64,000 nucleotides of DNA from an uncultured Spirochaetota bacterium (GCA_963783575.1 CAWAOD010000005.1:448001-512000); one strand, 5' to 3'. Numbered from the stretch's first letter, positions 9,129 to 34,002 are shown. Translations and numbers: made by a program. Notes: generated by a model from the letters alone, not told the origin.

Positions 9129-10193
9129 ATGTTAAATAACGATATATTCGCAAAAATATCGACTATATCCGCCGAACGCGATTTCAACGGCATCATAAAA
9201 CTGTCTATTCCGTATGATACGGCATTGATTAATAAAGTCAAATCCCTTCCTGTCAGAAAGTGGGAGCCACTGGATAAGAAATGGCTTATACCGGATACAG
9301 ACGAGAACCGCAAATCAATCTTACTTTTGTTCGGCATCAATATTAAAGATAAAACCGGCTGTAAATGGACCGAACCAATCGCCCAGGAACTCAGGATAAG
9401 GAAATACAGCCAGAGAACAAGCAAAAGTTACCTGTTTTATAATCAGGATTTCATCGGATTTACAGGAAAAGTCCCGAAGGCATTCAAAATCAGGACATAA
9501 AGAATTACCTTGATTACCTGGCGGATGAAAAGAACTCTTCAGCATCCACAATTAATTGCGCAATCAATGCTCTCCGGTTCTTTTACGGCGAAATCAGGCA
9601 TCAAAATTTTATTTATGAAATAAAACGGGCGAAAAAAGAGAAAAAATTACCTGTTGCTCTAAACCGGAATGAGATAAAAAAACTAATTTGTTCATATCAG
9701 AACTTAAAACATAAAACCATAATCGCTCTAACATATTCCGCGGGAATGCGTGTCAGTGAAACAGCCGGTTTAAAAGTCTCTGATATAGATAAAATACGCC
9801 ATATGATCCATATCAGAGGAGCAAAAGGTAAAAAAGACCGATATACAATATTTTCAAATTCTATTTTAAATCTATATGACAGGTATTTAAATGAATATGA
9901 GCCTGTATTCTGGCTTTTCGAGGGTCTTATGCCGAGATCAAAAATAAGCATTCGTACAATAAAGGCTATTTTTGAACAGGGCTTGAAAAAAACCGGTATT
10001 CAAAAAGATGCGACAGTCCATACCTTGAGGCATAGCTTTGCGACCCATCTTCTTGAGAATGGGGTTGATATCAGGTATATCCAGGAATTATTAGGGACAT
10101 GAATCAAGTAAAACGACAGAAATTTATACCCATATATCAGAAAAAAATCTGTCAAATATAAAAAGCCCATTAGATGGAATAAATGTTTTTTAA
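9129..10193 (+). pseudogene. Integron-like tyrosine recombinase (~354 aa when repaired), frameshifted at ~9467-9470 and ~10094-10096
   Basis: Joined frames read ELRIRKYSQRTSKSY...STINCAINALRFFY...YSAGMRVSE...KGKKDR...[38 protein letters not shown]...IKSPLD; R, K, HxxR, H and Y catalytic residues all present; frameshifts could be sequencing errors. Confidence 0.88.
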
Positions 10194-10256
10194 TTGCGTA
10201 TATCACTCCGAAATTTGAGTAATATACGCAATGCGTATATATCGAGTTAAACGAAA
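10194..10256 (+). other. attI-like primary recombination site
   Basis: Between integrase stop and first cassette GTT (10246); inverted repeats TTGCGTATAT...ATATACGCAA and core TGCGTATA-TATCGAGT-TAAACGAAA. Confidence 0.7.
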
Positions 10257-10302
10257 TTTTTGTGCCGGTTTGTTACTTATTGAAAAATAATGAGGAATAT
10301 CA

Positions 10303-10692
10303 ATGATTATTAATGCATCAAACAGATCAGTTCATGATAATTATATTGTTAATGCTTTAATTGATATTGAAAACTCGAATATAATTTTATCCACAAAATA
10401 CGAGAATGAAAATACAGTAATATTATTTGAAAATGTTTTGTGTCACAGTTTTGAAAATATAATCAACCAAAATATTATTTTAGATATTACTGAATATAAT
10501 ATTTCAGAATTTATTGATAGAATATCGCAACATTTATTAAATAATAAAAAATATTGTGATCCTCCAATTAATTGGGAAAATATTGATGATTTAAAAACAA
10601 AATTAACAAATTTGAAATATTTTGGATATGATATTTATAGTTCAATTGGTTTGAACGGTTGGGTTATTTCAAAACAAATGATTATAAAATAA
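10303..10692 (+). CDS. Cassette 1: hypothetical protein
   Basis: ORF with GAGG RBS in cassette 10246-10732. Confidence 0.75.
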   Translation: MIINASNRSVHDNYIVNALIDIENSNIILSTKYENENTVILFENVLCHSFENIINQNIILDITEYNISEFIDRISQHLLNNKKYCDPPINWENIDDLKTKLTNLKYFGYDIYSSIGLNGWVISKQMIIK

Positions 10693-10729
10693 GAAGTTAG
10701 ATGCTTATACAGGCACAAAAACTTCGTTT

Positions 10730-10974
10730 AACAGCGGCTATATCGCTCCGGTGCTCGAAAAAACTTTTCAGGGCGTAACGGAGGAGAAAGAGAAAAGTTT
10801 TTCCTGCGCTCCTCGGGTTCGCCCGTTTTTGCTTTTAGTAAAAAGAGAAAGGGGTTCAAATTGACTATGATGATTATTAAAATAAAGGTTATTATTTACG
10901 GGCTCACCAAACCCGCAAACTTAAGCGCGCGGGGCTGGCGCTAAGGTTTGCGGGCTTCGTATAGCCGCACCGTT
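10730..10974 (+). repeat. attC-like site 1 (type A, 245 bp)
   Basis: AACAGCGGCTATATCG...CGTATAGCCGCACCGTT with internal hairpins. Confidence 0.88.
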
Positions 10975-11004
10975 CTACGCAATTTTGCAAAGGATGGTTC
11001 TATT

Positions 11005-11451
11005 ATGGATAATATAGAAAAAAGATATGATATTAAGAGTGAAAAAACAATTAGTGAAATTATACTTAAAAATGGATGGGCTGATAGAATTTATTGGGAT
11101 AGAAATGATTGGTATATTGAATGGTCTGTAAAAGGTAAAAATATATTAAATAGAATTCCTAATATTCTCAATCAAATTGATGAATTAAATGATTCTGATA
11201 AGAATTGTATAAACTTTATGGTTAACTATTTTGGTATTAATAAGATTAAAAAGGATTTTGATGAAATCACTTTAAATATGCAAGAAGAAATTATAAAAAT
11301 TATTCAGAAAAGACTAATTATGAAAATACCAGATAAAATACTTGATAGTATTAGAAAAAATGGTCGTTCATATATAGCATTAGAAATGATTTTAGATACA
11401 GTAAAATCAGAACCATTAAAAGAATTAAAAAAATATATAAAGTCTTTGTAA
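11005..11451 (+). CDS. Cassette 2: hypothetical protein
   Basis: ATG at 11005; the longer ORF call from 10948 starts inside the attC-like site. Confidence 0.7.
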   Translation: MDNIEKRYDIKSEKTISEIILKNGWADRIYWDRNDWYIEWSVKGKNILNRIPNILNQIDELNDSDKNCINFMVNYFGINKIKKDFDEITLNMQEEIIKIIQKRLIMKIPDKILDSIRKNGRSYIALEMILDTVKSEPLKELKKYIKSL

Positions 11452-11473
11452 TACGCTTTGCAAAACTGCGCAG

Positions 11474-11717
11474 AACAACGGCTATATCGCTGCGGTGCTC
11501 GAAAAAACTTTTCAGGGCGTAACGGAGGAGAAGAGAAAAGTTTTTCTTGCGCTCCTCGGGTTCGCCCGTATTTGCTTTTTGGAAAAAGAGAAAGGAGTTC
11601 AACTTGACTATGATGATTAATAAAATAAAAGTCATTGTTTACGGGCTCACCACATTTGCAAGCCTAAGCGCGCGGGGCTGGCGCTAAGGCTTGCAAACGT
11701 CGTATAGCCACACCGTT
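11474..11717 (+). repeat. attC-like site 2 (type A)
   Basis: Near-copy of site 1. Confidence 0.88.
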
Positions 11718-11758
11718 GTACGAAATGGTGCAACAACTTATTAAATTAAGGATAATTT

Positions 11759-12310
11759 ATGCCTGAAAATCAACATTTAAAATCTGCTCGTAATGATTAC
11801 AATCCTGACCCTTTTTATTTTTTTGAAGAAAATGAGACCTTCAAAAGGTATGTTGTTTATAATCCTTTTTATGATGTCATCAAAAATATTTTTATTGATA
11901 TAATTAGTAATTACAATTCTGAAATTGAAATATTATTAAAAGATTTAAAGGATTATGATGAAACAGGAAAAAAAGATATAATTTGGGATCACTACTATAC
12001 TAAAACAACAAAAGATAAAATTCTAGAAGCATTGGATGTTCATTCAAAATACATATTTTATGATGGCTATCAACAATTATGCATTAGAGATTCAATAACT
12101 GAGGATTATTTTGCTTTCGATGATCATGGTATTTTATTTATCTATTCTGAAAATAAATTGATTGAAGATATTCTAAAAAAATATAAAATTAAGAACTCTA
12201 AAAATGAATTAATTCTTGAAAAACCGCATTGGCATATAAGACCTAAAGATGCAGATGATTTAAAAATTAGTTTCATAAAAGATCTTAAAATAGATAGGTC
12301 TAATGATTAA
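11759..12310 (+). CDS. Cassette 3: hypothetical protein (paralog of cassette 13)
   Basis: Shares FKRYVVYN, FDDHGILFIY and HWHIRPKDAD with 31397-31939. Confidence 0.8.
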   Translation: MPENQHLKSARNDYNPDPFYFFEENETFKRYVVYNPFYDVIKNIFIDIISNYNSEIEILLKDLKDYDETGKKDIIWDHYYTKTTKDKILEALDVHSKYIFYDGYQQLCIRDSITEDYFAFDDHGILFIYSENKLIEDILKKYKIKNSKNELILEKPHWHIRPKDADDLKISFIKDLKIDRSND

Positions 12311-12331
12311 ATATGTTGCACCACTTCGTAC

Positions 12332-12545
12332 AACACGGCATAGCTGTTCCGCTCCGTCCTCGCGCGGCTCCGGGCGGTGCTCAGCCTTCGGCACATTTGC
12401 CTTTGTCATCTTTTTTGCATATTTTAAATTTAATAAAAAGGGTTATAAAATGAAATGCTTTAATATATTTAAAGGCTGGTTCTGGAGTTGCAAAAAAGAC
12501 GCCAATCGCTGACGCGAGCGGCAAACGTCAGCTATGCCTACCGTT
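12332..12545 (+). repeat. attC-like site 3 (type B, long)
   Basis: AACACGGCATAGCTG...CAGCTATGCCTACCGTT. Confidence 0.85.
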
Positions 12546-12596
12546 GTACGAAATGTCTTGGTGCCAAGATTTTAGTTAAAGGAGATTATTATAATT

Positions 12597-13082
12597 ATGA
12601 AAAAACAATTAAAAAAAGAACCTACTAATATTGAGTTTATTTATAGTGTTATAAATAATATTCGAGGATCGAAATTAAATTATTCTTGGCGTGATTCTGG
12701 TACTATCTTCTTCGAAATTGGAACTATCATTAAAAAAGATAATCGTAATCATCCAGAAGGAAAATTTTCTTTTATGATTGATTATCCATGGCGTTTTGAA
12801 AAAAGCAATGCTATTATCTGTTCTTCAGAATTTAGTACTACAGAAAGAGACAATTTTCTCCAAAACATAATTGGGAAATCAATATTAAATATTGATTTTG
12901 TTACATGTTGTAATGATTTAATTATTGAATTTAATGATTTAGTATTCCGGCAATTTTCAATTGAATCTGATTTACACTCTTGGTCATTACGTATCAGGAA
13001 TGAAAATAACGAATATTTAAAAAATGATGTAGATCATTTTTGGTTATCTTTTGAAGAAAAAAATTTCTTGATTGAATTTTGA
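12597..13082 (+). CDS. Cassette 4: hypothetical protein
   Basis: ORF with AAGGAG RBS inside cassette. Confidence 0.75.
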   Translation: MKKQLKKEPTNIEFIYSVINNIRGSKLNYSWRDSGTIFFEIGTIIKKDNRNHPEGKFSFMIDYPWRFEKSNAIICSSEFSTTERDNFLQNIIGKSILNIDFVTCCNDLIIEFNDLVFRQFSIESDLHSWSLRIRNENNEYLKNDVDHFWLSFEEKNFLIEF

Positions 13083-13139
13083 TAAATTAATGATTATAGA
13101 AAGAAAATAATAAAACATTGGCACCAAGCCACTTCGTAC

Positions 13140-13382
13140 AACCGCGGCTATATCGCTCCGGTGCTCGAAAAAACTTTTCCGGGCGTAACGGAGGAGAAGA
13201 GAAAAGTTTTTCCTGCGCTCCTCGGGTTCGCCCGTTTTAGATTTTGATTAAAGAGAAAGGAGTTCAACTTGACTATGATGATTATTAAAATAGAAGTCAT
13301 TATTTACAGGCTCACCACATTTTCGGGCCTAAGAGCGCGGGGCTAGCTCTAAGGCCCAAAAACGTCGTATAGCCGCACCGTT
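13140..13382 (+). repeat. attC-like site 4 (type A)
   Basis: Near-copy of site 1. Confidence 0.88.
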
Positions 13383-13462
13383 GTACGCAAGCCTGGCTGA
13401 AGCTGGTTTAAATAAAATAATTCGGCATCCTTGCCGAATAAAATAAATTAAGGGGTTTTATT

Positions 13463-14254
13463 ATGATAACAAAAATATTTTATTTTTCGACAACGGGTAA
13501 TTCATTATATGTGGCTCGCACAATAGCTGGAAAATTAGGTGAAACTGAAATTATTTCTATTCCAAAAGTTATTAAAGGACAAATTAATACAGATTCTGAA
13601 AGTGTTGGAATAATATTTCCAGTTTATGCCTGGGGACTTCCTCGAATTGTTGCCGAATTTACTGAAAAACTCAAATTAAACAAAAATCAATATGTTTTTG
13701 CAATAGCTACATGTATTGAAATGCCTGGAGCCACATTAGGACAGTTAAATAAAATTTTAAATAAAAATGGATCACATTTAAATGCTGGTTTTTTAATAAG
13801 AGAAAATTTCCGTCCAAATAGTGATAATGAAATGTCTATAGTAAAATTCATTAAAAAAGCCACAAAGATAAAGCCAATTCAATTAAAAGGGAGGCTTCAA
13901 GAAATAACAGATATTCTAAAAAATAAAAAGAAGCATAAACTGGAAATGAGTGCCAAAATGGCTCAAATTTTAGGTAATTCTTTTCATAAGGTTGCAATCA
14001 AAAAATATATGGCAGCAGATTTGAATTATAAATTGGATGAAAAATGTAATTTATGCGGTATTTGTATCAAGATATGTCCTCGTGAAAATATTAAAATGGA
14101 AAATGGAAAAATTTTATGGAATCAAAACTGTGAAGGTTGTCAAGGATGTTATCAGTGGTGTCCAAAGGAAGCGATTCATTTGACAGATGGTACAGATATA
14201 AAAGTTGGGTATCATCACCCTGAAATTGTCCTTGGAGACATTGTTTTAAGATAA
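13463..14254 (+). CDS. Cassette 5: EFR1-family flavodoxin/4Fe-4S ferredoxin
   Basis: YFSTTGNS, FPVYAWG, and two CxxCxxCxxxCP motifs. Confidence 0.88.
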   Translation: MITKIFYFSTTGNSLYVARTIAGKLGETEIISIPKVIKGQINTDSESVGIIFPVYAWGLPRIVAEFTEKLKLNKNQYVFAIATCIEMPGATLGQLNKILNKNGSHLNAGFLIRENFRPNSDNEMSIVKFIKKATKIKPIQLKGRLQEITDILKNKKKHKLEMSAKMAQILGNSFHKVAIKKYMAADLNYKLDEKCNLCGICIKICPRENIKMENGKILWNQNCEGCQGCYQWCPKEAIHLTDGTDIKVGYHHPEIVLGDIVLR

Positions 14255-14436
14255 AACTGCGGAATTTTTGTAAATTAACGCCATCCTTGGCTTGGCTTTT
14301 TGTACCGATTTTCAGCAAGGCTGGAAATGATAAACTAATTTACCAGGGTAGCAATAAATGAAATTCCCATACCTGTCACAAACAGATTTCCCATAGAGAA
14401 GCTTGAAGATTACCTTTAATGAAAATTCATTAAAGG

Positions 14437-15999
14437 ATGGCAGGAATGGTGAAAAATATTATGTATCAGGACATAAAAAAACTGAAACTTTTGGGGAAAA
14501 GTAAAAATGGTGTATCCCGGGAACTGTCAATAGATATTAAGACAGTCCGGAAATATTGGACTATGAACGATGCTGAATACCAGAAAAGCCTGATGGAATT
14601 CTCTTTCCGTGAAAAAGAATTCGAAGGAATAAAAACAGATATATTGAAAGTATATGCAAAGAATGATTACATCCGGCTGAATATGTCTGCTTTGTATGAC
14701 TATTTATTGGAGGTAAAAGGCAAACTACCGGCGAATGAAAATACGATGAGGAATTTCGTACATTACCTGATTGAAAGCGGGCAGCTTACCTTGAATGAAA
14801 AGCGACGGTATTACACAAAAGTGCCTGACATGCCATATGGAAAGCAGCTCCAGCTTGATTTCGGTCAATATACCGACAGATATGGCAGAAGGTATTACAT
14901 ATTTGCCGCGGTGTTATCCGCCAGTCGTTTTAAGTATGCGGCCCTCCAGGAGAGGCCATTCCGGACAGAAGACCTGATCAATCATCTGTTGGACTGTTTC
15001 GCATATATGGGCGGGATACCGCATGAACTTGTCATCGATCAGGACTGCACGATGGTTGCGAGTGAGAACTCAGGCGATATCATCTACACGAAAGACTTTC
15101 AGTATTTCATCGGGGAAATGGGTCTTAAAATGTATGTGTGCCGACCTGCTGACCCGGAAAGTAAGGGAAAGATTGAAAACGTAGTCAAATTCATCAAGCA
15201 CGGTTTCTTCTCAGTCCGGGAGTTCAACAGTTTAATGGAAGCGGAAGAAAGCCTGATGAAATGGCTGGAAAGAAAAGCCAACGGGAGAATATCCCAGGCT
15301 ACAATGAAAATACCACTGATAGAGATTGAAACGGAAAGACCATATCTCCAATCTGTCAGGAATTCGATATTCCGTAAAGACAGGATAGGAGCAAGGGAAG
15401 AGCGCAGTGTAAGCGATAAATGCCGGATCGCAGTTGATGCAAGCCAGTATGATATTCCCGAAAAATACAGGAACGGTTCGGTGGACATCTACAAGACGGG
15501 CAGTCGGCTTTTTGTCTTTGACAGGATAACGGGAGAGCAAATCGCCGAATACCGGCTTTCAGTGATTCCGGGGCAGATTGTAACCAACAGGGCAATGATC
15601 CGGGAAATGGGAAAGAGTGTGCAGTTATTGAAAGAAGAAGTAAGCGGGTACTTTGATATTCCCGGCTGGAAGGATTTTCTTGAATGTAATTTCAGGAAGT
15701 TCAATCGTTATGTAAGGGACCAATGTCTTTCCGGAAGAAAATACTTCAGGGACAAGATAATTGATACCGGGAAGCTTACACAAGCGATCTCAAACTGCCT
15801 GGAGAGTGATAGTTATTCCATGAAGGATTTGTGGGATAATTACCTGAACTGTTTTATAACAGAAAAGGCAGAAATACCCTTGAATGTTGAAAAGATTGTC
15901 AGGCCTTCAGTGAATCCTGAACACTATCTTGAAGTAGCTAAATCAGACATCGGGAAATACCAGAGTTTCTGTGACTCCATCGGGGGCCGGCAATGTTGA
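14437..15999 (+). CDS. istA: IS21 transposase
   Basis: QLDFG, VIDQD and PESKGKIENVVK motifs. Confidence 0.92.
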   Translation: MAGMVKNIMYQDIKKLKLLGKSKNGVSRELSIDIKTVRKYWTMNDAEYQKSLMEFSFREKEFEGIKTDILKVYAKNDYIRLNMSALYDYLLEVKGKLPANENTMRNFVHYLIESGQLTLNEKRRYYTKVPDMPYGKQLQLDFGQYTDRYGRRYYIFAAVLSASRFKYAALQERPFRTEDLINHLLDCFAYMGGIPHELVIDQDCTMVASENSGDIIYTKDFQYFIGEMGLKMYVCRPADPESKGKIENVVKFIKHGFFSVREFNSLMEAEESLMKWLERKANGRISQATMKIPLIEIETERPYLQSVRNSIFRKDRIGAREERSVSDKCRIAVDASQYDIPEKYRNGSVDIYKTGSRLFVFDRITGEQIAEYRLSVIPGQIVTNRAMIREMGKSVQLLKEEVSGYFDIPGWKDFLECNFRKFNRYVRDQCLSGRKYFRDKIIDTGKLTQAISNCLESDSYSMKDLWDNYLNCFITEKAEIPLNVEKIVRPSVNPEHYLEVAKSDIGKYQSFCDSIGGRQC

Positions 16000-16742
16000 A
16001 GATAAGAGAACAAATCATAACTGCGCTTACAACTCTCGGGTTGAAGGGTATGATAAAACGGATTGATGAGGAAATTGGTGAGGCTGAAAAGGCAAAAGAG
16101 TCTTATCTGAGTTTTCTGCAGAGGCTGCTTTCTCTGGAATTGAATTATAGAGTGGAAAAACGTTTTCAGCGGAATATGGCAGGAGCACACTTCCCGGTCC
16201 GCAAAGATGTGGAAGGTTTTAATTTTGAAAAAGTGAATGGAATATCTAAAATGGATGTTTCACAGCTATTGGATTTCTGCTGGATTGATAATCATCATAA
16301 CCTGTTGTTCTTTGGGTCTCCGGGGCTGGGGAAAACGCATCTGGCAATTAGTATCGGAATCCGGGCAGTTGAAAAGGGATATATTGTCTGCTTTGAAAGG
16401 ATGACTACTCTCATTAAGTTTCTGAAAACGGCGGACATCCAGAGAAGCTCTGCTTTCAGGCTGAACCGGATGATGAAGTCACACTTATTAATCATTGATG
16501 AGATAGGTTACACACCTATCGAAAAGAAGGAGGCAAATCTATTCTTTAGTCTTGTAAGTGAATTGTATGAAAAGACATCAATTGTGATAACATCGAATAA
16601 GGGATTTCAGGATTGGGCTGAAATGATGGGAGACCCGATTATGACAACCGCTCTTCTGGATAGGCTTTTACATCATTCAAATATTTATAACTTGAGCGGA
16701 GAATCTTACAGAATACAAAATTTGAATAAGGAGGTTGAGTAA
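15993..16742 (+). CDS. istB: IS21 helper ATPase
   Basis: GSPGLGKTHLA, LIIDEIGY, ALLDRLLHH, GESYR. Confidence 0.94.
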   Translation: MLKIREQIITALTTLGLKGMIKRIDEEIGEAEKAKESYLSFLQRLLSLELNYRVEKRFQRNMAGAHFPVRKDVEGFNFEKVNGISKMDVSQLLDFCWIDNHHNLLFFGSPGLGKTHLAISIGIRAVEKGYIVCFERMTTLIKFLKTADIQRSSAFRLNRMMKSHLLIIDEIGYTPIEKKEANLFFSLVSELYEKTSIVITSNKGFQDWAEMMGDPIMTTALLDRLLHHSNIYNLSGESYRIQNLNKEVE

Positions 16743-16896
16743 CCATTCTTTGCCTCCTCACTATGGGAAATACTCACGTGGAAGGTATGGGGAAAACTCT
16801 TGTGAAGCATATGGGAAATACTCTTGTGGAAGGGGTGGGAAATTACCCGAGCGCAGATATGGGAAAAACTCTTGACATTTCCAAAGGCCAGCGTAC

Positions 16897-17048
16897 AACA
16901 GCGGCTATACGCTGCGGTGCGTCCTCGCGGGGCTCCGGGCGCTCCTCGGTCCTGCGGACACATTTTGCTTTGTCACGGCTTTTGCTGCGTGGGATGCAAA
17001 AGCCGCGCCAACCCTACGGGACGCAAAACGTCGTATAGCCGCACCGTT
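16897..17048 (+). repeat. attC-like site 5 (152 bp)
   Basis: AACAGCGGCTATACG...CGTATAGCCGCACCGTT. Confidence 0.85.
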
Positions 17049-24897: not shown

Positions 24898-25050
24898 AAC
24901 AGCAAGTCAGCGGTTGCGCTCGAGTACTCGCTCCACCCAAATCGCCGGGCTGGTTGAAAGCAATTAAATATGTTAATTTTTATAAATGCTTTTTGATATA
25001 ATATTTACAGCTTAATTAAATACCGGCGACTTCGCCGACTTGCACCCGTT
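24898..25050 (+). repeat. attC-like site 10 (type C, divergent)
   Basis: AACAGCAAGTC...GACTTGCACCCGTT; internal TCGCCGG/CCGGCGA stem. Confidence 0.8.
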
Positions 25051-25164
25051 GTACGAAAATTTCCGGGCCGAAGCTGATGATATTACTTTTCCGGCGTCCT
25101 TGCCGGAAAAATGATTTATTATTTAAAATGTATTAGAATTTATATCGATTAGTAGAGGTTTTAA

Positions 25165-26439
25165 ATGGCATTATTATCAGAAATTGAATCTGCACTAATG
25201 CTTGGAATTACAGTTGAATTATTAAATTCATATACAAAATATTGTCCAAAATCTGGCGAAAATGTTAAATTAAAATATAAAATAGTAAAAGGTATAAAAC
25301 ATTTTGAAAAAGATGATATTCTATTTTATCATAAATATTTAAACAGTCCGTGGCCTATGCCAAAAAAAGGAGAAAGACCATATATTCCTAAAGCAATCCA
25401 AGATTTTATAAAGTTTGAATCACATTATTCCTGTTCAATTTGCGGTCATATGGATAATGGTGAAATAGCACATATTGAAGCAGTTTCAACAACACTAAAT
25501 AATAGTCCAGATAATCTTATTTATTTATGTCCAAATCATCATACAAAATATGATTATGGTTACAAACCTAATAGTAATGTTACATTAGAAGAAATTCGTG
25601 CTTCAAAACTTTTAAAAAGAAATGCTTTACAAAGAGTGATGAAATATGAGTCTAATACAGTTAAATTATTAAAAGTTACATTATTAAACATAAAATCAAT
25701 CAGTGAAAAACTAGCCTTTGAAAGTGATAAAACAATGCTAGAGATTTATAATGTTGAATTACAAAACATTGTGAAGAATTTACCAGAATATATAGATAAA
25801 GCAAATGATGACGCAAAAAAAGATATAAGTTTAGTAAATGAAAAAGAACTATTATCTAAAAATGCACCAAATTTAATAAAATATTCAAATATAATAATAA
25901 AAGATTCTTCTTTGTTCAAAACATCCGTTGACTCAATAATCAAGATTTCTAACGAAATATTTATTGATTTAGATGAATATCCCTGTCCTCATTGTGGAGG
26001 AAGCGGACTAACAGGATTACTCGGTGATATATGTGTTTATTGTAAAGGTTCTTGTGTAGTCTCAAAGCAAATGGTTAATAGTTATGACTCTAATAAAATT
26101 GATGAAGTTGAATGTCCTCATTGTGGAGGAAGCGGACTAACAGGATTACTCGGTAATATATGTATTTATTGTAAAGGTTCTCGTAGAGTATCTCATAAAA
26201 AGTTTGATCAGTATGATCCAGATAAAATCGATGAAGTTGATTGCCCTCGTTGTGGGGGAAGCGGACTAACAGGATTACTCGGTGATATATGTACTTATTG
26301 TAAAGGTTCTCGTAGAGTATCTCATAAAAAGTTTGATGAGTATGATCCCGATGAAACCAATGAAGTTGAATGTCCTCATTGTAGGGGAAGTGGTCTATCA
26401 GGATTAGTCGGTAATGTATGTAAATTATGTAAAGGTTAA
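25165..26439 (+). CDS. Cassette 11: HNH endonuclease with four C-terminal CxxCxGxG zinc-finger repeats
   Basis: CSICG...EIAHI...NLIYLCPNHHTKYD; repeats CPHCGGSGLTGLLGDICxYCKGS. Confidence 0.8.
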   Translation: MALLSEIESALMLGITVELLNSYTKYCPKSGENVKLKYKIVKGIKHFEKDDILFYHKYLNSPWPMPKKGERPYIPKAIQDFIKFESHYSCSICGHMDNGEIAHIEAVSTTLNNSPDNLIYLCPNHHTKYDYGYKPNSNVTLEEIRASKLLKRNALQRVMKYESNTVKLLKVTLLNIKSISEKLAFESDKTMLEIYNVELQNIVKNLPEYIDKANDDAKKDISLVNEKELLSKNAPNLIKYSNIIIKDSSLFKTSVDSIIKISNEIFIDLDEYPCPHCGGSGLTGLLGDICVYCKGSCVVSKQMVNSYDSNKIDEVECPHCGGSGLTGLLGNICIYCKGSRRVSHKKFDQYDPDKIDEVDCPRCGGSGLTGLLGDICTYCKGSRRVSHKKFDEYDPDETNEVECPHCRGSGLSGLVGNVCKLCKG

Positions 26440-26566
26440 TGTGTTGTAACTAAGATAGTATATAAAGAATATATCAAGAAATATGGAACTATTGGCGATT
26501 AAAGCCTCCGCCGTCCTGGGCTCCGGCTTTTTGCTTAAACATTCGGCCCGGAAAACATCGTACAAC

Positions 26567-28361
26567 GGCCTTGTAGAAAAAGTTAATTTCAGGTAATAAT
26601 CCTCCATTCCCAAACAGTTTGTTTTTTTTGATCTGTCTGGAATTACTTTATTTATATAAAACCGGGCTGAATTTACCGGCAAAGCTGCTTTTATTCCATC
26701 ACTATGCCATTATATCCCTCCATAGACCTGAATTTTCCCGATATTGTGCACAGTATTATATAATACCCATTGAATATTCACTTTTCCCTTTCCCCTCAGC
26801 GTAAATCGATCCATACCTTTACATGCCCTTATATTCCCGAATACAGGCTCAACTATAGCCATTCTTTTCGCATAAAGCTTTCTGCCTTAAGGTGTATCTA
26901 TGAACTTTCTCATTTCGTCCGAGTAATGTCTGTTATCCGCATTCAATGGCCTTTGCAACATCGTGTTGCTGTCGAACTAACGTTCGACGGCCTTTTTGGC
27001 TATATAGTAGCTCTTATGGAACCTCCGTGTTCCCAAGGTTGTTTGATTTTATTTTAATTCTTCAGGAAGTCTTTCCGGAATGGACAATTACGGCAGGACA
27101 ATAACCGGCAGATATACTTCGCATATGTAATATGATTCACCGTATGGTTATATCTGAACCTGAGTTCCTCTCCTTTCTTGCATATATAAACATTATTTTC
27201 CGGATCATATTGAAAATCATCAATTGTATACTGCCCTTTCTTCGCAGGCTTATGTCTGTCAGCGGTTTCAAACCTGCAATCGCGCTTCCTGAAATTCGTA
27301 TCCGGGATGACCGGTTTCATACCGTTTTGCGAAATATATTTCAGGTTCTTTTCGCTGAAATAATTGGTGTCCGCAGTGATTATTTTATCCTTTAAATCTT
27401 TTCCCAATTCTACTTTTGCTTTACGGATCATCCCTTTCAGGAATTCCCCCTCAGACCCGCTCCCAAAAGCTTCGGGATATACCACAACCTGATACTTCGA
27501 ATCCACTACAGAAAGTCCGTTGTAGCCCTGGATAACACCATGTGAACTCTTTATTTTCGCACTCTCGTTGTCAGTGACATTGGACTGCTTTTCACCATGC
27601 CGTGCCTTGTTTTTGGGTTTTTCACTTTCCAGAAACTTTTCTATCTTTTCCGCTTTCTTTAAAATCTTCTCGATCCGTGCCAGATCTTTTTCCTTATCCT
27701 TCTCAGGAAAACCGCCGGCCTGATCACGCTTTTCATGTTCATCAAGCATTTCCTTAACCAGGTTTTCCAGCTTCTCTTTTTTCTTCTTCAAATCCTTAAA
27801 TGTTCCGCTCCATTCCTTTGATGCATTTGACGATAGTTTGCACCCGTCCAGCGCGAACATATCCCCGCCTATGAGATTCAGTTCGTCACAAACCATTAAT
27901 ATATTCAGGAATACGGTATTTATCTCATTTTTCATCGATGATACAAAATCGGCGATGGAAGTAAAGTGCGGTATTGAATTGGCGGAAATGGCTTTGGCTA
28001 TAATATTCGTTTTACACAAATACTCGATTTCACGTGATGTAAAAATACCGCGGGAATAGCTGTAGAGTATTATTTTGAGCATAACCCGCGGATTATAAGC
28101 CGGGGCACCGGTAGCATCGTTCTTATACTTATTCTCAAAGATTTTAAGATCAATTCTGTTGTCAACAAGAAAACTGAGTGTATATTCAAATGTTCCCGGT
28201 ATAATCTGCTCATCGAATGAGACAGGTATGAGTTCCATTTGATCGTAATTAACTTTCTTATATCTTGCCATAATTGCTTTTACCTCTTGATTTTATTTCC
28301 AATATATTTTAAAGTATATACGATATTCTGTACATGAATGACGGACTTTTTCTACAGGCTC
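26567..28361 (-). mobile_element. IS1182-family element, copy 1, inserted at attC AAC core
   Basis: TIRs GGCCTTGTAGAAAAAGT / ACTTTTTCTACAGGCTC; (C)AAC duplicated. Confidence 0.9.
27054..28271 (-). CDS. IS1182 transposase N-terminal part; C-terminal part 26710-26961 has an extra stop in this copy
   Basis: GAPAYNPRVMLKIILY, FALDGCK, SNVTDNES, QGYN, TADTNY. Confidence 0.85.
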   Translation of the reverse strand: MARYKKVNYDQMELIPVSFDEQIIPGTFEYTLSFLVDNRIDLKIFENKYKNDATGAPAYNPRVMLKIILYSYSRGIFTSREIEYLCKTNIIAKAISANSIPHFTSIADFVSSMKNEINTVFLNILMVCDELNLIGGDMFALDGCKLSSNASKEWSGTFKDLKKKKEKLENLVKEMLDEHEKRDQAGGFPEKDKEKDLARIEKILKKAEKIEKFLESEKPKNKARHGEKQSNVTDNESAKIKSSHGVIQGYNGLSVVDSKYQVVVYPEAFGSGSEGEFLKGMIRKAKVELGKDLKDKIITADTNYFSEKNLKYISQNGMKPVIPDTNFRKRDCRFETADRHKPAKKGQYTIDDFQYDPENNVYICKKGEELRFRYNHTVNHITYAKYICRLLSCRNCPFRKDFLKN

Positions 28362-28516
28362 AACAGCGCGTAGACGCTGCGCTCCTCGGCTATCGCTAAG
28401 GCGACCGGCTGCGGCCTTAGCCTGCGGTGCTCGGGCTTCGCCAAATTTGCCTTTGGCACACATTTTTGCAAAGCAAAAAGATGTGACAAAGGCAAACTTC
28501 GTCTACGCGAACCGTT
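28362..28516 (+). repeat. attC-like site 11 (separated from its cassette by IS1182)
   Basis: AACAGCGCGTAGACG...CGTCTACGCGAACCGTT. Confidence 0.83.
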
Positions 28517-28575
28517 GTACGCCATATCGTCCAGCAAAATTGAATTATACAAATAATAATACAAATAATATGTAC

Positions 28576-28604
28576 TTGACATCATAAATAAAAAATGATA
28601 TAGT
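28576..28604 (+). promoter_or_regulatory. Sigma70-type promoter of TA cassette
   Basis: TTGACA-17 nt-TATAGT with TGn extension; ATG follows after 5 nt. Confidence 0.7.
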
Positions 28605-28609
28605 TATTT

Positions 28610-28972
28610 ATGTGGATTATTGATAGATCTGAAGAAATAATTAAATGGATTCAAGGATTGGATGATGATGCAAAGGAATCAATATTACAGCATTTGATTA
28701 TTCTAAAAAATATTGGACCTTCTTTAGGAAGACCATATGTTGACTTAATTGATGAAAGTAAACATAAGAATATGAAAGAATTAAGGGTTCAAAATAAAAA
28801 AAGAGCTTTTAGAATATTCTTTGCCTTTGATCCTGAAAGAAAAGCAATCTTATTAATTGGTGGAGATAAAAAAGGCAATAAAAATTTCTACAAAGAAATA
28901 ATACCAAAAGCAGATAATTTATATGACATACATTTAAAAGAATTGGAGAAAAAATATGAAAGAAAAAGTTAG
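28610..28972 (+). CDS. Cassette 12: RelE/ParE-like (Gp49/HigB-type) toxin
   Basis: GPSLGRPYVD...MKELRVQ...RIFFAFDPERKAILLIGGDK. Confidence 0.9.
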   Translation: MWIIDRSEEIIKWIQGLDDDAKESILQHLIILKNIGPSLGRPYVDLIDESKHKNMKELRVQNKKRAFRIFFAFDPERKAILLIGGDKKGNKNFYKEIIPKADNLYDIHLKELEKKYERKS

Positions 28973-29279
28973 TAAGAGAGACTTTTTAGATGAATTATCA
29001 AATACTCTCTCTCCTGAAAGAGTTGAAAGAGCTAAAACAAATGCTGATAAAGAAATATTTAAGATCAGATTGTCAGAATTAAGAAAACAAATGGGAGTTA
29101 AACAAGAAGAAATAAAATCCTTTTCTCAATCCAGTATATCCAGAATAGAATCAAGAAAAGATATGAAAGTTTCAACTCTTATTGAATATTTAGAAGATAT
29201 TGGAATGGGTCTTGAAATTAAAGTATATCCAAAAAAAAGAAGTAATAAAAACAAAGAAGTAACATTATTGCGAGTCTGA
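28956..29279 (+). CDS. Cassette 12: XRE-HTH antitoxin
   Basis: LSELRKQMGVKQ...SQSSISRIESRKDMKVSTL; overlaps toxin gene. Confidence 0.88.
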   Translation: MKEKVSKRDFLDELSNTLSPERVERAKTNADKEIFKIRLSELRKQMGVKQEEIKSFSQSSISRIESRKDMKVSTLIEYLEDIGMGLEIKVYPKKRSNKNKEVTLLRV

Positions 29280-29455
29280 TTCTACCGACAGCTGGACGAT
29301 ACGGCGTACAACGGCCTTGTAGAAAAAGTTAATTTCAGGTAATAATCCTCCATTCCCAAACAGTTTGTTTTTTTTGATCTGTCTGGAATCACTTTTTTTT
29401 TATAAAACCGGGCTGAATTTACAGGCAAAACTGTTTTTATTCCATCACTATGCCA

Positions 29456-29707
29456 TTATATACCTCCATAGACCTGAATTTTCCCGATATTGTGCACAGT
29501 ATTATATAATACCCATTGAATATTCACTTTTCCCTTTCCCCTCAGCGTAAATCGATCCATACCTTTACATGCCCTTATATTCCCGAATACAGGCTCAACT
29601 ATAGCCATTCTTTTCGCATAAAGCTTTCTGCCTTCAGGCGTATCTATGAACTTTCTCATTTCGTCCGAGTAATGTCTGTTATCCGCATTCAATGGCCTTT
29701 GCAACAT
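29456..29707 (-). CDS. IS1182 transposase C-terminal part
   Basis: YAKRMAIVEPVFGNIR...FTLRGKGKVNIQW...VHNIGK. Confidence 0.75.
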   Translation of the reverse strand: MLQRPLNADNRHYSDEMRKFIDTPEGRKLYAKRMAIVEPVFGNIRACKGMDRFTLRGKGKVNIQWVLYNTVHNIGKIQVYGGI

Positions 29708-29799
29708 CGTGTTGCTGTCGAACTAACGTTCGACGGCCTTTTTGGCTATATAGTAGCTCTTATGGAACCTCCGTGTTCCCAAGGTTGTTTGATTTTATT

Positions 29800-31017
29800 T
29801 TAATTCTTCAGGAAGTCTTTCCGGAATGGACAATTACGGCAGGACAATAACCGGCAGATATACTTCGCATATGTAATATGATTCACCGTATGGTTATATC
29901 TGAACCTGAGTTCCTCTCCTTTCTTGCATATATAAACATTATTTTCCGGATCATATTGAAAATCATCAATTGTATACTGCCCTTTCTTCGCAGGCTTATG
30001 TCTGTCAGCGGTTTCAAACCTGCAATCGCGCTTCCTGAAATTCGTATCCGGGATGACCGGTTTCATACCGTTTTGCGAAATATATTTCAGGTTCTTTTCG
30101 CTGAAATAATTGGTGTCCGCAGTGATTATTTTATCCTTTAAATCTTTTCCCAATTCTACTTTTGCTTTACGGATCATCCCTTTCAGGAATTCCCCCTCAG
30201 ACCCGCTCCCAAAAGCTTCGGGATATACCACAACCTGATACTTCGAATCCACTACAGAAAGTCCGTTGTAGCCCTGGATAACACCATGTGAACTCTTTAT
30301 TTTCGCACTCTCGTTGTCAGTGACATTGGACTGCTTTTCACCATGCCGTGCCTTGTCTTTGGGTTTTTCACTTTCCAGAAACTTTTCTATCTTTTCAGCT
30401 TTCTTTAAAATCTTCTCGATCCGTGCCAGATCTTTTTCCTTATCCTTCTCAGGAAAACCGCCGGCCTGATCACGCTTTTCATGTTCATCAAGCATTTCCT
30501 TAACCAGGTTTTCCAGCTTCTCTTTTTTCTTCTTCAAATCCTTAAATGTTCCGCTCCATTCCTTTGATGCATTTGACGATAGTTTGCACCCGTCCAGCGC
30601 GAACATATCCCCGCCTATGAGATTCAGTTCATCGCAAACCATCAGTATATTAAGGAATATGGTATTTATCTCATTTTTCATCGAAGAAACAAAATCGGCG
30701 ATTGAAGTAAAGTGCGGTATTGAATTGGCGGAAATGGCTTTGGCTATAATATTCGTTTTACACAAATATTCGATTTCACGTGATGTAAAAATACCGCGGG
30801 AATAGCTGTAGAGTATTATCTTCAGCATAACCCGCGGATTATAAGCCGGGGCACCGGTAGCATCGTTCTTATACTTATTCTCAAAGATTTTAAGATCAAT
30901 TCTGCTGTCAACAAGAAAACTGAGTGTATATTCAAATGTTCCCGGTATAATCTGCTCATCGAATGAGACAGGTATGAGTTCCATTTGATCGTAATTAACT
31001 TTCTTATATCTTGCCAT
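29800..31017 (-). CDS. IS1182 transposase N-terminal part
   Basis: Near-identical to 27054-28271. Confidence 0.85.
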   Translation of the reverse strand: MARYKKVNYDQMELIPVSFDEQIIPGTFEYTLSFLVDSRIDLKIFENKYKNDATGAPAYNPRVMLKIILYSYSRGIFTSREIEYLCKTNIIAKAISANSIPHFTSIADFVSSMKNEINTIFLNILMVCDELNLIGGDMFALDGCKLSSNASKEWSGTFKDLKKKKEKLENLVKEMLDEHEKRDQAGGFPEKDKEKDLARIEKILKKAEKIEKFLESEKPKDKARHGEKQSNVTDNESAKIKSSHGVIQGYNGLSVVDSKYQVVVYPEAFGSGSEGEFLKGMIRKAKVELGKDLKDKIITADTNYFSEKNLKYISQNGMKPVIPDTNFRKRDCRFETADRHKPAKKGQYTIDDFQYDPENNVYICKKGEELRFRYNHTVNHITYAKYICRLLSCRNCPFRKDFLKN

Positions 31018-31107
31018 AATTGATTTCCCCTCTTGATTTTATTTACAATATATTTTAAAGTATAACCGTTATTTTGTACATGAATGACGGACTTTTTCTA
31101 CAGGCTC

Positions 31108-31351
31108 AACAGCGGCTATATCGCTCCGGTGCACGAAAAAACTTTTAAAGGCGTAACGGAGAAGAAGAGAAAAGTTTTTCCTGCGCTCCTCGGGTTCGCC
31201 CGTTTTTGCTCTAAGTTAAAAGAGGAAGGAGTTCAAATTGACTATGATAATTAATAAAATAGAAGTTATTGTTTACGGGCTCACCACATTTGCAAGCCTA
31301 AGCGCGCGGGGCTTGCGCTAAGGCTTGCAAACGTCGTATAGCCGCACCGTT
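31108..31351 (+). repeat. attC-like site 12 (type A)
   Basis: Near-copy of site 2, follows IS copy 2. Confidence 0.87.
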
Positions 31352-31396
31352 GTACGAAATGGTGCAACGCTTTTTAATATAATTTAAGGAGTATTT

Positions 31397-31939
31397 GTGA
31401 ACAATGATCCAATGAAATCAGCTAGAGAAGATTATAAACCTACTCCATTTTACTTTTCTGAAGAAAATAATAATTTTAAAAGATATGTTGTTTATAACAA
31501 TTCATTTGAAATCATTAAACAACTATTAAAAGAAATAATAAGTTCCTATGATAATATAATAGAAATATTATTAAAAGATTCTCAAGGTTATGATGATAAA
31601 AAGGAAGAAGATATTTGGGACAGATATTATTCAGAAACCACAAAAGAAAACATTTTAAAATTACTTGAAATTCATTCAAAATATATTTTCTTTGATGGAA
31701 ATAATCAATTATGCATAAAAGATTCATCAACTGGTGATTATATTTCTTTTGATGATCATGGAATTTTATTTATTTATACTGATAAGTTTATTGATGACTT
31801 ATTATTAAAAAATGGAATAGAAAAAAAGAAAAATGAATTAATTTATGATCAAGGTCATTGGCATATAAGACCAAAAGATGCTGATGTATTAATGAATAAT
31901 TTTATTAAGGACTTACAATTAAAAAAGCTTGAAGATTAA
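31397..31939 (+). CDS. Cassette 13: hypothetical protein (paralog of cassette 3)
   Basis: AAGGAG RBS then GTG; similar to 11759-12310. Confidence 0.8.
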   Translation: MNNDPMKSAREDYKPTPFYFSEENNNFKRYVVYNNSFEIIKQLLKEIISSYDNIIEILLKDSQGYDDKKEEDIWDRYYSETTKENILKLLEIHSKYIFFDGNNQLCIKDSSTGDYISFDDHGILFIYTDKFIDDLLLKNGIEKKKNELIYDQGHWHIRPKDADVLMNNFIKDLQLKKLED

Positions 31940-31963
31940 ACATGTTGCGCCACTTCGCACAAC

Positions 31964-33338
31964 GGCCTTGTAGAAAAAGTTAATTTCAGGTAATAATCCT
32001 CCATTCCCAAACAGTTTGTTTTTTTTGATCTGTCTGGAATCACTTTTTTATATAAAACCGGGCTGAATTTACCGGCAAAACTGCTTTTATTCCATCACTA
32101 TGCCATTATATACCTCCATAGACCTGAATTTTCCCGATATTGTGCACAGTATTATATAATACCCATTGAATATTCACTTTTCCCTTTCCCCTCAGCGTAA
32201 ATCGATCCATACCTTTACATGCCCTTATATTCCCGAATACAGGCTCAACTATAGCCATTCTTTTCGCATAAAGCTTTCTGCCTTCAGGTGTATCTATGAA
32301 CTTTCTCATTTCGTCCGAGTAATGTCTGTTATCCGCATTCAATGGCCTTTGCAACATCGTGTTGCTGTCGAACTAACGTTCGACGGCCTTTTTGGCTATA
32401 TAGTAGCTCTTATGGAACCTCCGTGTTCCCAAGGTTGTTTGATTTTATTTTAATTCTTCAGGAAGTCTTTCTGGAATGGACAATTACGGCAGGCCGATAA
32501 CCGGCAGATATACTTCGCGTATGTAATGTGATTCACCGTATGGTTATATCTGAACCTGAGTTCCTCTCCTTTCTTGCATATATAAACATTATTTTCCGGA
32601 TCATATTGAAAATCATCAATTGTATACTGCCCTTTCTTCGCAGGCTTATGTCTGTCAGCGGTTTCAAACCTGCAATCGCGCTTCCTGAAATTCGTATCCG
32701 GGATGACCGGTTTCATACCGTTTTGCGAAATATATTTCAGGTTCTTTTCGCTGAAATAATTGGTGTCCGCAGTGATTATTTTATCCTTTAAATCTTTTCC
32801 CAATTCTACTTTTGCTTTACGGATCATCCCTTTCAGGAATTCCCCCTCAGACCCGCTCCCAAAAGCTTCGGGATATACCACAACCTGATACTTCGAATCC
32901 ACTACAGAAAGTCCGTTGTAGCCCTGGATAACACCATGTGAACTCTTTATTTTCGCACTCTCGTTGTCAGTGACATTGGACTGCTTTTCACCATGCCGTG
33001 CCTTGTCTTTGGGTTTTTCACTTTCCAGAAACTTTTCTATCTTTTCAGCTTTCTTTAAAATCTTCTCGATCCGTGCCAGATCTTTTTCCTTATCCTTCTC
33101 AGGAAAACCGCCGGCCTGATCACGCTTTTCATGTTCATCAAGCATTTCCTTAACCAGGTTTTCCAGCTTCTCTTTTTTCTTCTTCAAATCCTTAAATGTT
33201 CCGCTCCATTCCTTTGATGCATTTGACGATAGTTTGCACCCGTCCAGCGCGAACATATCCCCGCCTATGAGATTCAGTTCATCGCAAACCATCAGTATAT
33301 TAAGGAATATGGTATTTATCTCATTTTTCATCGAAGAA
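31964..33338 (-). mobile_element. IS1182-family element, copy 3 (transposase 5' end deleted)
   Basis: Begins after CACAAC; ORFs 32450-33331 and 32106-32357; fused directly to the right part of an attC-like site. Confidence 0.87.
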
Positions 33339-33401
33339 CCCGCAAACCTAAGCGCGCGGGGCTGGCGCTAAGGTTTGCGGGCTTCGTATAGTCGAGCCGT
33401 T
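33339..33401 (+). repeat. Right remnant of attC-like site 13
   Basis: CCCGCAAACCTAAGCGCGCGGGGCTGGCGCTAAGGTTTGCGGGCTTCGTATAGTCGAGCCGTT matches the end of site 1. Confidence 0.83.
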
Positions 33402-33453
33402 GTACGCCATTCAATGTGAACTATATCCCTATTCCTAAGTTTTTAAATTTTAA

Positions 33454-33482
33454 TTGACAAATTTATAAATATGTATTACTAT
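33454..33482 (+). promoter_or_regulatory. Sigma70-type promoter of second TA cassette
   Basis: TTGACA-17 nt-TACTAT. Confidence 0.6.
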
Positions 33483-33490
33483 GTTTACAT

Positions 33491-33760
33491 ATGGTATATT
33501 ATGAAGAAGATGTGGAAAAAAATTTGTCTAAAGGTAAAATTCCACAAGATGTTTTTGTCCACATGAATAATGCTTTTATTTCTATTGATTCGACTAAAGA
33601 TTTAACTTTATTCGATATTAAAAAGCTGATATCTAAAAAAAAAACAGCTTATTACAGGTTAAGAAAAGGAAAATATAGGGCTATTTTTTATTTAGAAGAT
33701 GATAGTGTGTATGTTATTAAAATTTCAAAAAGGGAGGATGTGTACAAAAAATGGGAGTAA
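33491..33760 (+). CDS. Cassette 14: RelE-family toxin
   Basis: DIKKL...YYRLRKGKYRAIF...ISKREDVYK. Confidence 0.85.
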   Translation: MVYYEEDVEKNLSKGKIPQDVFVHMNNAFISIDSTKDLTLFDIKKLISKKKTAYYRLRKGKYRAIFYLEDDSVYVIKISKREDVYKKWE

Positions 33761-34002
33761 TCTCAGTTCGTTTCAATCCAAAAGAAGAAAAAGTTCTTAA
33801 TTATTTGTCTAAATATTATGATAAAGAAAAATCATCGCTGATAAAACAAGCATTGATAGATATGTATGAAGATATAGTTGATCGTGAGGAAATAGATAAA
33901 TTTTTGATTAGAAAGGAAAAAGGGAAGATTAGTTTTAAATCAGCTGATGAAATACTGGATGCACAGGGCACGGCGCACAACGGCCTTATAGAAAAAGTCT
34001 AA
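33751..34002 (+). CDS. Cassette 14: RHH (RelB/DUF6290-like) antitoxin
   Basis: VISVRFNPKEE...SSLIKQAL...YEDIVD; reads through the cassette end into the IS remnant. Confidence 0.75.
   Translation: MGVISVRFNPKEEKVLNYLSKYYDKEKSSLIKQALIDMYEDIVDREEIDKFLIRKEKGKISFKSADEILDAQGTAHNGLIEKV

Follow-up and report, generated by a model that had tools for sequence, protein, structure and literature searches.

Can gene cassettes be collected by an integron-like system whose recombinase lacks the insertion typical of IntI? This question is raised by a 64,000-nucleotide (nt) stretch of DNA from an uncultured Spirochaetota bacterium (GCA_963783575.1, CAWAOD010000005.1:448001-512000), which is called the window below. 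A preliminary description of the sequence had placed in it a tyrosine recombinase gene, an attI-like site and an array of cassettes bounded by very long palindromic sites. It had proposed a distinct integron-like family that runs parallel to the known one. The analysis indicates that the locus is likely an integron-type platform for gene capture on the chromosome. Its lineage would be distinct from that of classical integrons, and in intact relatives an insertion-less recombinase would run it. The cassettes have their boundaries at GTT, and the proposal of a parallel family was supported by the absence of the insertion, the recurring layout of gene, attI and array, and a site grammar that differs from the canonical one.

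The insertion in question is the I2 element. In the parts of Escudero 2020 (PMC7790495) that deal with I2, its acquisition is presented as an innovation toward single-strand recombination, starting from double-strand recombination; direct proof of causality is missing there because deletion of I2 kills IntI1. The part of Smyshlyaev 2021 (PMC8138268) on an integron-like subgroup calls the insertion "not fully conserved". The literature covered, which left out supplements and subscription journals, contained no account of an insertion-less integrase serving a cassette array. A lineage with the whole integron layout and neither I2 nor extrahelical bases is the missing comparison. Such a system offers a natural test of integron origins, and makes the question of I2 testable at the bench.

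Recombinase gene and attI-like site

The array is headed by two features:
9129-10193, plus strand: tyrosine recombinase pseudogene with two frameshifts and no IntI insertion; the middle frame matches PF13495 and PF00589 and scores 161.6 bits against TIGR02249
10194-10252, plus strand: attI-like site with repeated or palindromic motifs of the GCGTATAT type, the 5-nt spacer ATCGA and the core GTTAAAC at 10246-10252

Frames 1 and 3 of positions 9129-10201 jointly encode one tyrosine recombinase of about 355 residues, with frameshifts at about 9465-9480 and about 10097-10102. An N-terminal beta-rich domain, weakly HARP-like, is followed by a SAM-like core-binding domain and a catalytic domain. The HARP-like Pfam matches were weak (17.7 bits here; 27.0 and 24.7 bits in two homologs; cut-off 25), and a protein-atlas search with the N-terminal 78 residues gave best scores of 0.78 and 0.75, both to unnamed clusters. 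The run of RGAKGKKDRYTIF and then EPVFWLFEGLMPRSKISIRT, read earlier from the DNA, was confirmed exactly in the translated frames.

The middle frame (9443-10099, 219 aa) was compared with curated profiles. Its 161.6 bits against TIGR02249 lie below the curated IntI cut-off of 265, and the match was split into two stretches with profile positions 175-232 skipped. Against NF040815 (XerA_Arch/"integron integrase"), this 219-aa fragment of the approximately 355-residue protein scored 183.4 bits, with a cut-off of 220. A search with the single fragment returned 4 related loci. The pseudogene is the only member of the recombinase family in its own genome.

The frameshifts are probably real, since 13 copies of an IS630-type insertion sequence (IS) in the same genome showed 0 indels among them and the assembly is thus not indel-prone. 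Sequencing error was judged an unlikely cause for the same reason. The public reads comprised one run with a small share (0.10) and gave a single 162-nt contig, which covers only 9283-9444 and lies outside both frameshifts and all joints; no RNA data set was listed as containing the sequence.

The attI-like site of the preliminary description was borne out at 10194-10252. It carries three copies of the GCGTATAT-type motif, then ATCGA, then GTTAAAC. The core begins 53 nt past the stop codon of the recombinase and is complementary to the closing core (R'') of cassette 1. At least 13 homolog loci share this architecture, with an inverted motif pair past the stop codon and GTT 5-7 nt beyond it. 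As in integrons, the attI lies beside the recombinase gene with insertion at the GTT core.

Cassette boundaries

All 14 co-oriented cassettes reported earlier were recovered. They lie on the plus strand, and each runs from GTTNNNN to NNNNAAC. The opening and closing cores of the same cassette were exact complements in 10/14, differed by one mismatch in 3/14 and by three mismatches in 1/14 (cassette 10). When closing cores were permuted among cassettes, 0 of 100,000 permutations equalled the observed complementarity. Between R'' and R' of a given site, perfect complementarity was seen in only 4 of 13 cases. Informative rare pairs were GTTCTAC/GCAGAAC, GTTAAAC/GTTTAAC (twice), GTTAAAT/ATTTAAC, GTTGTGC/GCACAAC and GTTAGCT/AGCTAAC. 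Complementary cores are a property of the cassette rather than of the site, which is the pattern left by integron recombination at G|TT and a hallmark of integrons. A cassette end that is an imperfect palindrome, with the bases after G|TT belonging to the next cassette, was found here and likewise in the related genome G216.

The boundary was also seen in a duplication. Cassettes 10 and 11 with their IS (window 24317-28469) occur again on another contig of the source genome (C9:383975-388066) at 97.4% identity. The identity starts 2 nt ahead of GTT; the site upstream differs and has another L box. The duplicate is a second, independent sign of a cassette boundary at GTT. On the right, the copies diverge just past the IS, which suggests exchange through IS copies.

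Absence of the IntI insertion

The window recombinase was compared with IntI and Xer proteins through an intact homolog, P0002 of G216 (351 aa, 61% identity to the window recombinase). P0002 aligned with VchIntIA (2a3v) in two pieces, with residues 251 and 276 opposite 181 and 248, that is, 24 residues versus 66. With archaeal XerA (4a8e, 5hxy) it aligned in one piece. IntI1 and ten IntI of the same phylum had 31 + 10 extra alignment columns, which were present in none of the insertion-less proteins or host Xer. The TIGR02249 gap, the VchIntIA alignment and these columns bore out the claim that the IntI insertion is absent. By alignment, the window recombinase lacks the additional domain of about 41 residues (I2).

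The structure of P0002 was predicted with a mean confidence (pLDDT) of 86.9. The best solved folds were VchIntIA (E 1e-16) and XerA (E 1e-15), with the next tier at E 1e-9; these two are the nearest solved structures by sequence as well as by fold. The N-terminus of the model forms a beta-beta-alpha-beta-beta-alpha domain.

A tree of 58 rows was built in a quick IQ-TREE search from 44 insertion-less proteins, 11 IntI and 3 host Xer as the root. The IntI rows formed one clade (SH-aLRT 100), and the insertion-less rows were placed around it with backbone support of at most 83. Forcing all 44 insertion-less rows into one clade gave a better likelihood (+9.3) and was not rejected by the approximately unbiased (AU) test (p 0.73). 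The tree is compatible with insertion-less proteins and canonical IntI as sister groups, both well apart from host Xer. It gives no decision between gain and loss of the insertion.

The distribution of the recombinase family is patchy. It was found in 5/11 genomes of the taxonomic family and, at E<=1e-40, in 138/401 genomes of the phylum; G216 has 4 copies. Host Xer-like genes are separate; they encode 293-295 aa and score 95-107 bits versus at least 190 bits for family members. The window family resembles XerA and XerCD in its catalytic domain without insertion and in its contiguous alignment with XerA. Unlike Xer, it is not a single-copy housekeeping gene, and it accompanies cassette arrays instead of a dif site. 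The conserved single copy expected of Xer housekeeping at dif was not found, as the family is patchy, has four copies in G216 and is a pseudogene here.

Arrays beside homologs in other genomes

Sites beside homologs were searched for with a detector. A first version, built on complementarity between R'' and R' within a site, recovered only 3 sites, which was no more than shuffled sequence gave. It was replaced because cores belong to cassettes, not to sites. The link detector called a site by AAC...GTT with 9 bp or more of L stem, and a link where R' complemented the next R'' with at most one mismatch. It was run on 18 loci around homologs in 15 genomes of the phylum. Chained sites followed the homologs in 11/18 loci, with at least two links in 4, one link in 7 and none in the other 7. 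Among 150 random 20-kb pieces of the source genome outside arrays, used as control, 136 had no link, 14 had one and 0 had two. Homologs thus do sit beside similar arrays, a check that the preliminary description had proposed. The detector is incomplete, and clear sites in locus L099 were missed.

Contig 6 of G216 was read base by base. It contains an intact recombinase gene, an attI reading TTATACGCATTGCGTATATAAAGA|GTTGTAC and then a six-link cassette chain. A similar locus was found on the plasmid NZ_CP041688 of Chryseobacterium sp. SNU WT5 (locus L062, 9956-20000), where an intact insertion-less recombinase is followed by co-oriented small genes with chained sites of 133-148 nt. This array also holds an IS110-family transposase and a group II intron, both oppositely oriented. 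Chryseobacterium sp. SNU WT5 is a cultured isolate and a convenient experimental system.

Canonical IntI over the TIGR02249 cut-off was found in 0/1 source genome (89.85% complete), in 0/5 array-bearing relatives (G216, G043, G066, G029, G011) and in 0/11 sampled genomes of the same taxonomic family. In the canonical IntI loci of the phylum (L076-L085), intI is co-oriented with the array or divergent. The co-orientation noted earlier is therefore real in the window but not distinctive, as canonical IntI of the same phylum can also be co-oriented.

More distant homologs, from metagenomes, numbered 80, with 32-57% identity. All that could be measured lacked the insertion, with 61-75 residues from KxKDR to HxLRH in 70/71 loci; the remaining value was spurious and came from a mis-picked motif.

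Size and folding of the sites

The 12 measurable sites of the window are 160-253 nt from R'' to R' inclusive, two of them after subtraction of an inserted IS. The long palindromic sites described earlier were confirmed, but the size of 152-245 bp given for them was corrected to these values. Canonical attC sites are about 57-141 bp long, and the window sites exceed this range. The term "giant" is true in the window; homologous sites in most related arrays are 97-177 nt long and share the inner motifs GGGCTTCGCCACATT and GCAACGTC. The sites of 220-253 nt have AT-rich inserts within loops. On this comparison, the giant size is a local elaboration by loop inserts, as the relatives' sites are about 100 nt. 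Copies of a single IS, one copy being truncated, interrupt three sites, and an IS remnant at 33982 cuts off the last site. An Rfam scan of the window gave 0 matches; Rfam contains no family that corresponds to the standard attC model.

Predicted folds of both strands have R''/R' and L''/L' paired around a branched middle. S9 is a hybrid, with L'' and L' from two site types and no pairing between them. Site grammar was compared through the DNA pairing predicted for the outermost 26 nt of both arms, with site lists from our own detector, for 36 canonical sites in 6 loci versus 38 sites of insertion-less arrays in 11 loci. In 36/36 canonical sites, a helix of 5-6 bp gives way to a bulge of 1-2 nt in the R'' arm, a pattern found in 0/38 sites of insertion-less arrays. 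The canonical sites also had symmetric spacers of 2-3 nt and usually 6 further bp with a second bulge, the classical extrahelical bases. In the insertion-less arrays, the stem was unbroken over at least 8 bp in 33/38 sites and the spacer was shorter on the R'' side in 35/38. The contrast is not a selection artefact, because the detector would accept canonical-type sites in those loci. The extrahelical bases and I2, the element that reads them, are either both present or both missing.

The same detector found chained sites beside canonical IntI in 6/10 loci of the phylum, with lengths of 63-128 nt. Among 43 chained hits, 28 distinct L-box 9-mers were counted with complementarity kept, a result that is partly circular since the detector requires a stem.

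Short open reading frames (ORFs) were noticed in the loop inserts. The enlarged sites of 219-253 nt carry inserts with a Shine-Dalgarno-like motif and an ORF of about 20-25 codons (e.g., 11595-11690, 12440-12505 and C9:383850-383950). The mini-ORF extends into the right hairpin arm, and its stop codon lies about 45 nt ahead of R'. One type, MMI(I/N)KI(K/E)V...ARGWR*, has 16 copies in the source genome, and other site types carry others. One mini-ORF is conserved between the source genome and G216. The substitutions gave no clear signal of selection at the protein level. Possibly the mini-ORFs are leader ORFs, opening the hairpin so that the next cassette can be translated.

Proposed mechanism and alternatives

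We infer from these sequence comparisons that the insertion-less enzyme is the cassette recombinase, that its substrate is single-stranded and that it chooses a strand. In intact relatives, an IntI/XerA-like recombinase without I2 sits directly upstream of its own attI, which holds pairs of a 9-nt motif and, 5-7 nt beyond, a GTT core. This recombinase would bind the double-stranded attI and a folded cassette-end site and cut at or beside G|TT, and circular cassettes would be inserted and excised as in integrons. The sites most likely act as folded hairpins with an R box of 7 bp, an asymmetric unpaired spacer (1-3 versus 3-7 nt) and an unbroken L stem of 9-11 bp. The asymmetry of the spacer may take the strand-marking role that extrahelical bases have in canonical attC.

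Several points weigh against this mechanism and the separate lineage. The local enzyme is a pseudogene, and the system is known from sequence. Canonical IntI occurs in 42/401 genomes of the phylum, together with the insertion-less type in a few, so action in trans is possible. Of the 7/18 loci without a link, several lie on short contigs ending within 1-2 kb, but two of them, L048 and L051, are long. The window (AAC/GTT cores plus stem) served as the model for the detector, which favours look-alikes, and the loci are mutually related, which makes the counts across genomes non-independent. With 58 rows from a quick search, the tree is small, and its backbone support is at most 83. An IS91-type transposase lies directly downstream in 36/80 metagenome homologs, and among 14 metagenome contigs without IS91 and with at least 3 kb downstream, two links were found in 1, one in 4 and none in 9.

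The last point sets the array-linked enzymes in a larger context. Because many metagenome homologs are linked to IS91, the array-linked enzymes are one part of a larger insertion-less family. A tblastn search for an IS91 transposase downstream gave 0/47 phylum loci, and the window has attI and cassette 1 at that position. IS91-associated tyrosine recombinases (NCBI "site-specific tyrosine recombinase/integron integrase", NF040815) belong to the same broad family, with 33-57% identity and no insertion. Unlike the window recombinase and the 47 phylum loci, they directly precede an IS91 rolling-circle transposase. The IS91-linked homologs are found among metagenome loci L090-L165 and on plasmids of Clostridium estertheticum (locus L063). 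The link of the recombinase family to single-stranded mobile DNA may run deeper than the integron-like arrays.

The first alternative is an ordinary cluster of attC sites lacking an integron integrase (CALIN), that is, the relic of a canonical IntI that has since disappeared or works from a distance, with an unrelated Xer-like or mobile-element enzyme as neighbour. Under the IntegronFinder rules, as given in parts of Cury 2016 (PMC4889954) and Neron 2022 (PMC9024848), an array without an IntI-profile protein is filed as CALIN if its sites are detected, and no protein in the source genome passed the IntI-profile cut-off. The canonical IntI genes of the phylum, the dead local recombinase, the several recombinase-less satellite arrays of the genome and the many distant homologs linked to IS91 and not to arrays all fit such a relic. 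However, the layout of gene, attI, GTT and array recurs with intact enzymes, canonical IntI was not found in 6 array-bearing genomes, and the sites are without the extrahelical-base pattern of the 36/36 canonical phylum sites. A CALIN also differs from the window array in that the latter is headed by a dedicated recombinase gene and attI, and homologous arrays keep an intact copy. An ordinary CALIN is therefore considered unlikely.

In the second alternative, the system is real and served by this recombinase, but it acts on double-stranded DNA like Xer/dif or Cre/lox, and the palindromes serve termination, RNA structure or regulation. The enzyme does align in one piece with XerA, a double-strand recombinase; it lacks I2, the element that reads folded attC in the sections of Escudero 2020 (PMC7790495) on IntI; and attI resembles a conventional double-stranded site with inverted motifs. 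However, because R'' and R' lie 150-250 nt apart, they would form a two-armed site only if folded. The L boxes vary yet stay complementary, an argument that shares the partial circularity of the 9-mer count. Moreover, XerCD, which lacks I2, can use a folded single-stranded site during integration of CTX phage DNA, according to the same parts of that paper, so I2 is not a prerequisite in principle. A double-strand mode is accordingly thought quite improbable.

Intergenic palindromes like repetitive extragenic palindromic (REP) sequences or miniature inverted-repeat transposable elements (MITEs), with a coincidental cassette look, would account for highly similar sites at many places in the genome, but this is hardly credible given core complementarity that tracks the cassette and not the site, the same cassettes behind different sites with a break at GTT, and an array that begins exactly at attI behind the recombinase gene.

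The integron-type platform run by an insertion-less recombinase is thus preferred. An even chance is given to the further claim that recombinases without I2 run functional cassette platforms on hairpin sites without extrahelical bases. If true, I2 is neither required for single-strand cassette recombination nor was it present at its origin. The classical combination of IntI and extrahelical-base attC would then form one specialised branch of a much wider and older family. Sequence relatives of these cassette collectors also include recombinases from IS91 rolling-circle (single-strand) elements.

Comparison with chromosomal integrons

The window array is similar in many respects to sedentary chromosomal integrons such as the Vibrio cholerae superintegron (VchIntIA, 2a3v). 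Both have a tyrosine recombinase beside attI and promoterless single-gene cassettes in one orientation, with imperfect-palindrome ends and ...AAC / GTT... cores. In both, the variable bases of R' are part of the cassette that follows, the sites are homogeneous within the array, and the cassettes include toxin-antitoxin and defence-like genes as well as many ORFs without a family. The co-orientation of recombinase and cassettes corresponds to the "inverted" type of integron. The differences lie in the enzyme, which lacks I2 (about 41 residues), falls below the TIGR02249 cut-off and has an extra N-terminal beta-rich domain, and in the sites, which have an asymmetric spacer and an unbroken L stem of 9-11 bp instead of two extrahelical bases. 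The site core is GTT-R-T-A-Y, whereas the canonical integron core is GTTRRRY, and the window sites are 160-253 nt long. In Bacteroidota and beyond, integron surveys that depend on an IntI-specific profile probably count too few cassette platforms or list them as orphan arrays.

Cassette contents

The cassettes and their sites are as follows:
10246-10978, plus strand: cassette 1, ORF 10303-10692 without a Pfam match; site S1 10726-10978 (253 nt)
10972-11721, plus strand: cassette 2, ORF 11005-11451; S2 11470-11721 (252 nt); rare core pair GTTCTAC/GCAGAAC
11715-12549, plus strand: cassette 3, ORF 11759-12310, a paralog of the cassette 13 ORF; S3 12328-12549 (222 nt)
12543-13386, plus strand: cassette 4, ORF 12597-13082; S4 13136-13386 (251 nt)
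13380-17052, plus strand: cassette 5, flavodoxin/4Fe-4S ORF 13463-14254; IS21-type element at about 14322-16883 (istA, istB); S5 16893-17052 (160 nt)
17046-19416, plus strand: cassette 6, PD-(D/E)XK-like ORF 17092-17565 and ORF 18734-19177; S6 19198-19416 (219 nt)
About 17539-18686, transposase on the minus strand: IS630-type element in cassette 6, interrupting the PD-(D/E)XK-like ORF
19410-20553, plus strand: cassette 7, ORF 19446-20285 with a NADase_transloc domain; S7 20302-20553 (252 nt); GTTAAAT/ATTTAAC
20547-21442, plus strand: cassette 8, ankyrin-repeat ORF 20593-21162; S8 21192-21442 (251 nt); GTTGTGC/GCACAAC
21436-24325, plus strand: cassette 9, ResIII helicase-HNH ORF 21521-24079 (852 aa); S9 24166-24325 (160 nt); GTTAGCT/AGCTAAC
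24319-25054, plus strand: cassette 10, ORF 24379-24873; S10 24894-25054 (161 nt); the sole cassette with disagreeing cores
25048-28520, plus strand: cassette 11, HNH and DnaJ-type zinc-finger ORF 25165-26439; S11 with R'' at 26560-26566, IS5-like element at 26567-28361 and remainder at 28362-28520
28514-31355, plus strand: cassette 12, Gp49/HigB-like toxin ORF 28610-28972 and partner ORF 28956-29279
29306-31355, plus strand: site S12 of cassette 12, with R'' at 29306-29312, IS5-like copy at 29313-31107 and remainder at 31108-31355
31349-33405, plus strand: cassette 13, ORF 31397-31939
31957-33405, plus strand: site S13 of cassette 13, with R'' at 31957-31963 followed by a truncated IS5-like copy (to about 33338); of the rest, just the right portion remains, with R' at 33399-33405
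33399-33981, plus strand: cassette 14, ORFs 33491-33760 and 33751-34002 (DUF6290 antitoxin-like pair); R'' GCACAAC at 33975-33981

Most cassette ORFs have no Pfam family. The contents include two toxin-antitoxin-like pairs, and PADLOC gave domain-level matches only for 12 cassette proteins. A diverged IS-end remnant lies directly past R'' of cassette 14, where the array ends.

Decay of the array and its parasites

The 14-cassette array is a frozen relic, because its recombinase is dead and no intact copy is present in the 90%-complete assembly. Recombinase-less satellite arrays or single sites of the same site family were found on six other contigs of the genome:
C10:73-86 kb
C16:111-119 kb
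C4:21-26 kb
C9 at 127, 180, 383-389 and 534 kb
C12:24 kb
C13:207 kb

Insertions in the window array comprise the IS21-type element in cassette 5, the IS630-type element in cassette 6, and the IS5-like element in three sites with its remnant at the array end. The array has been eroded by the IS21 and IS630-type elements, by the IS that targets R'' and by homologous recombination, as seen in the hybrid S9 and the IS-bounded C9 duplication.

The IS5/IS1182-like element has the following copies:
26567-28361, in S11
29313-31107, in S12
31964 to about 33338, in S13
from 33982, remnant
further copies on contigs C10, C9, C16 and C4

It is a DDE element (DUF772 and DDE_Tnp_1) with the inverted ends GGCCTTGTAGAAAAAG. 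It lies directly past the AAC of R'' in a single orientation in 7/7 copies examined, and every copy in the genome lies within an attC-like site. A 3-bp duplication of AAC probably accompanies insertion. IS1111-attC and group IIC-attC are mobile elements that target attC sites, and the window IS resembles them in its fixed site position and single orientation. It was not identified as IS1111-attC, as its transposase is a DDE enzyme (IS5/IS1182-like) and not a DEDD enzyme of the IS110 family. Analogous in this to IS1111-attC, the element is a site-specific parasite of attC-like sites.

Tandem repeats were seen at two places. The zinc-finger region of the cassette 11 ORF (25972-26437) contains three tandem repeats of 129 nt, and three 24-nt tandem repeats lie just upstream of S5 (16762-16842).

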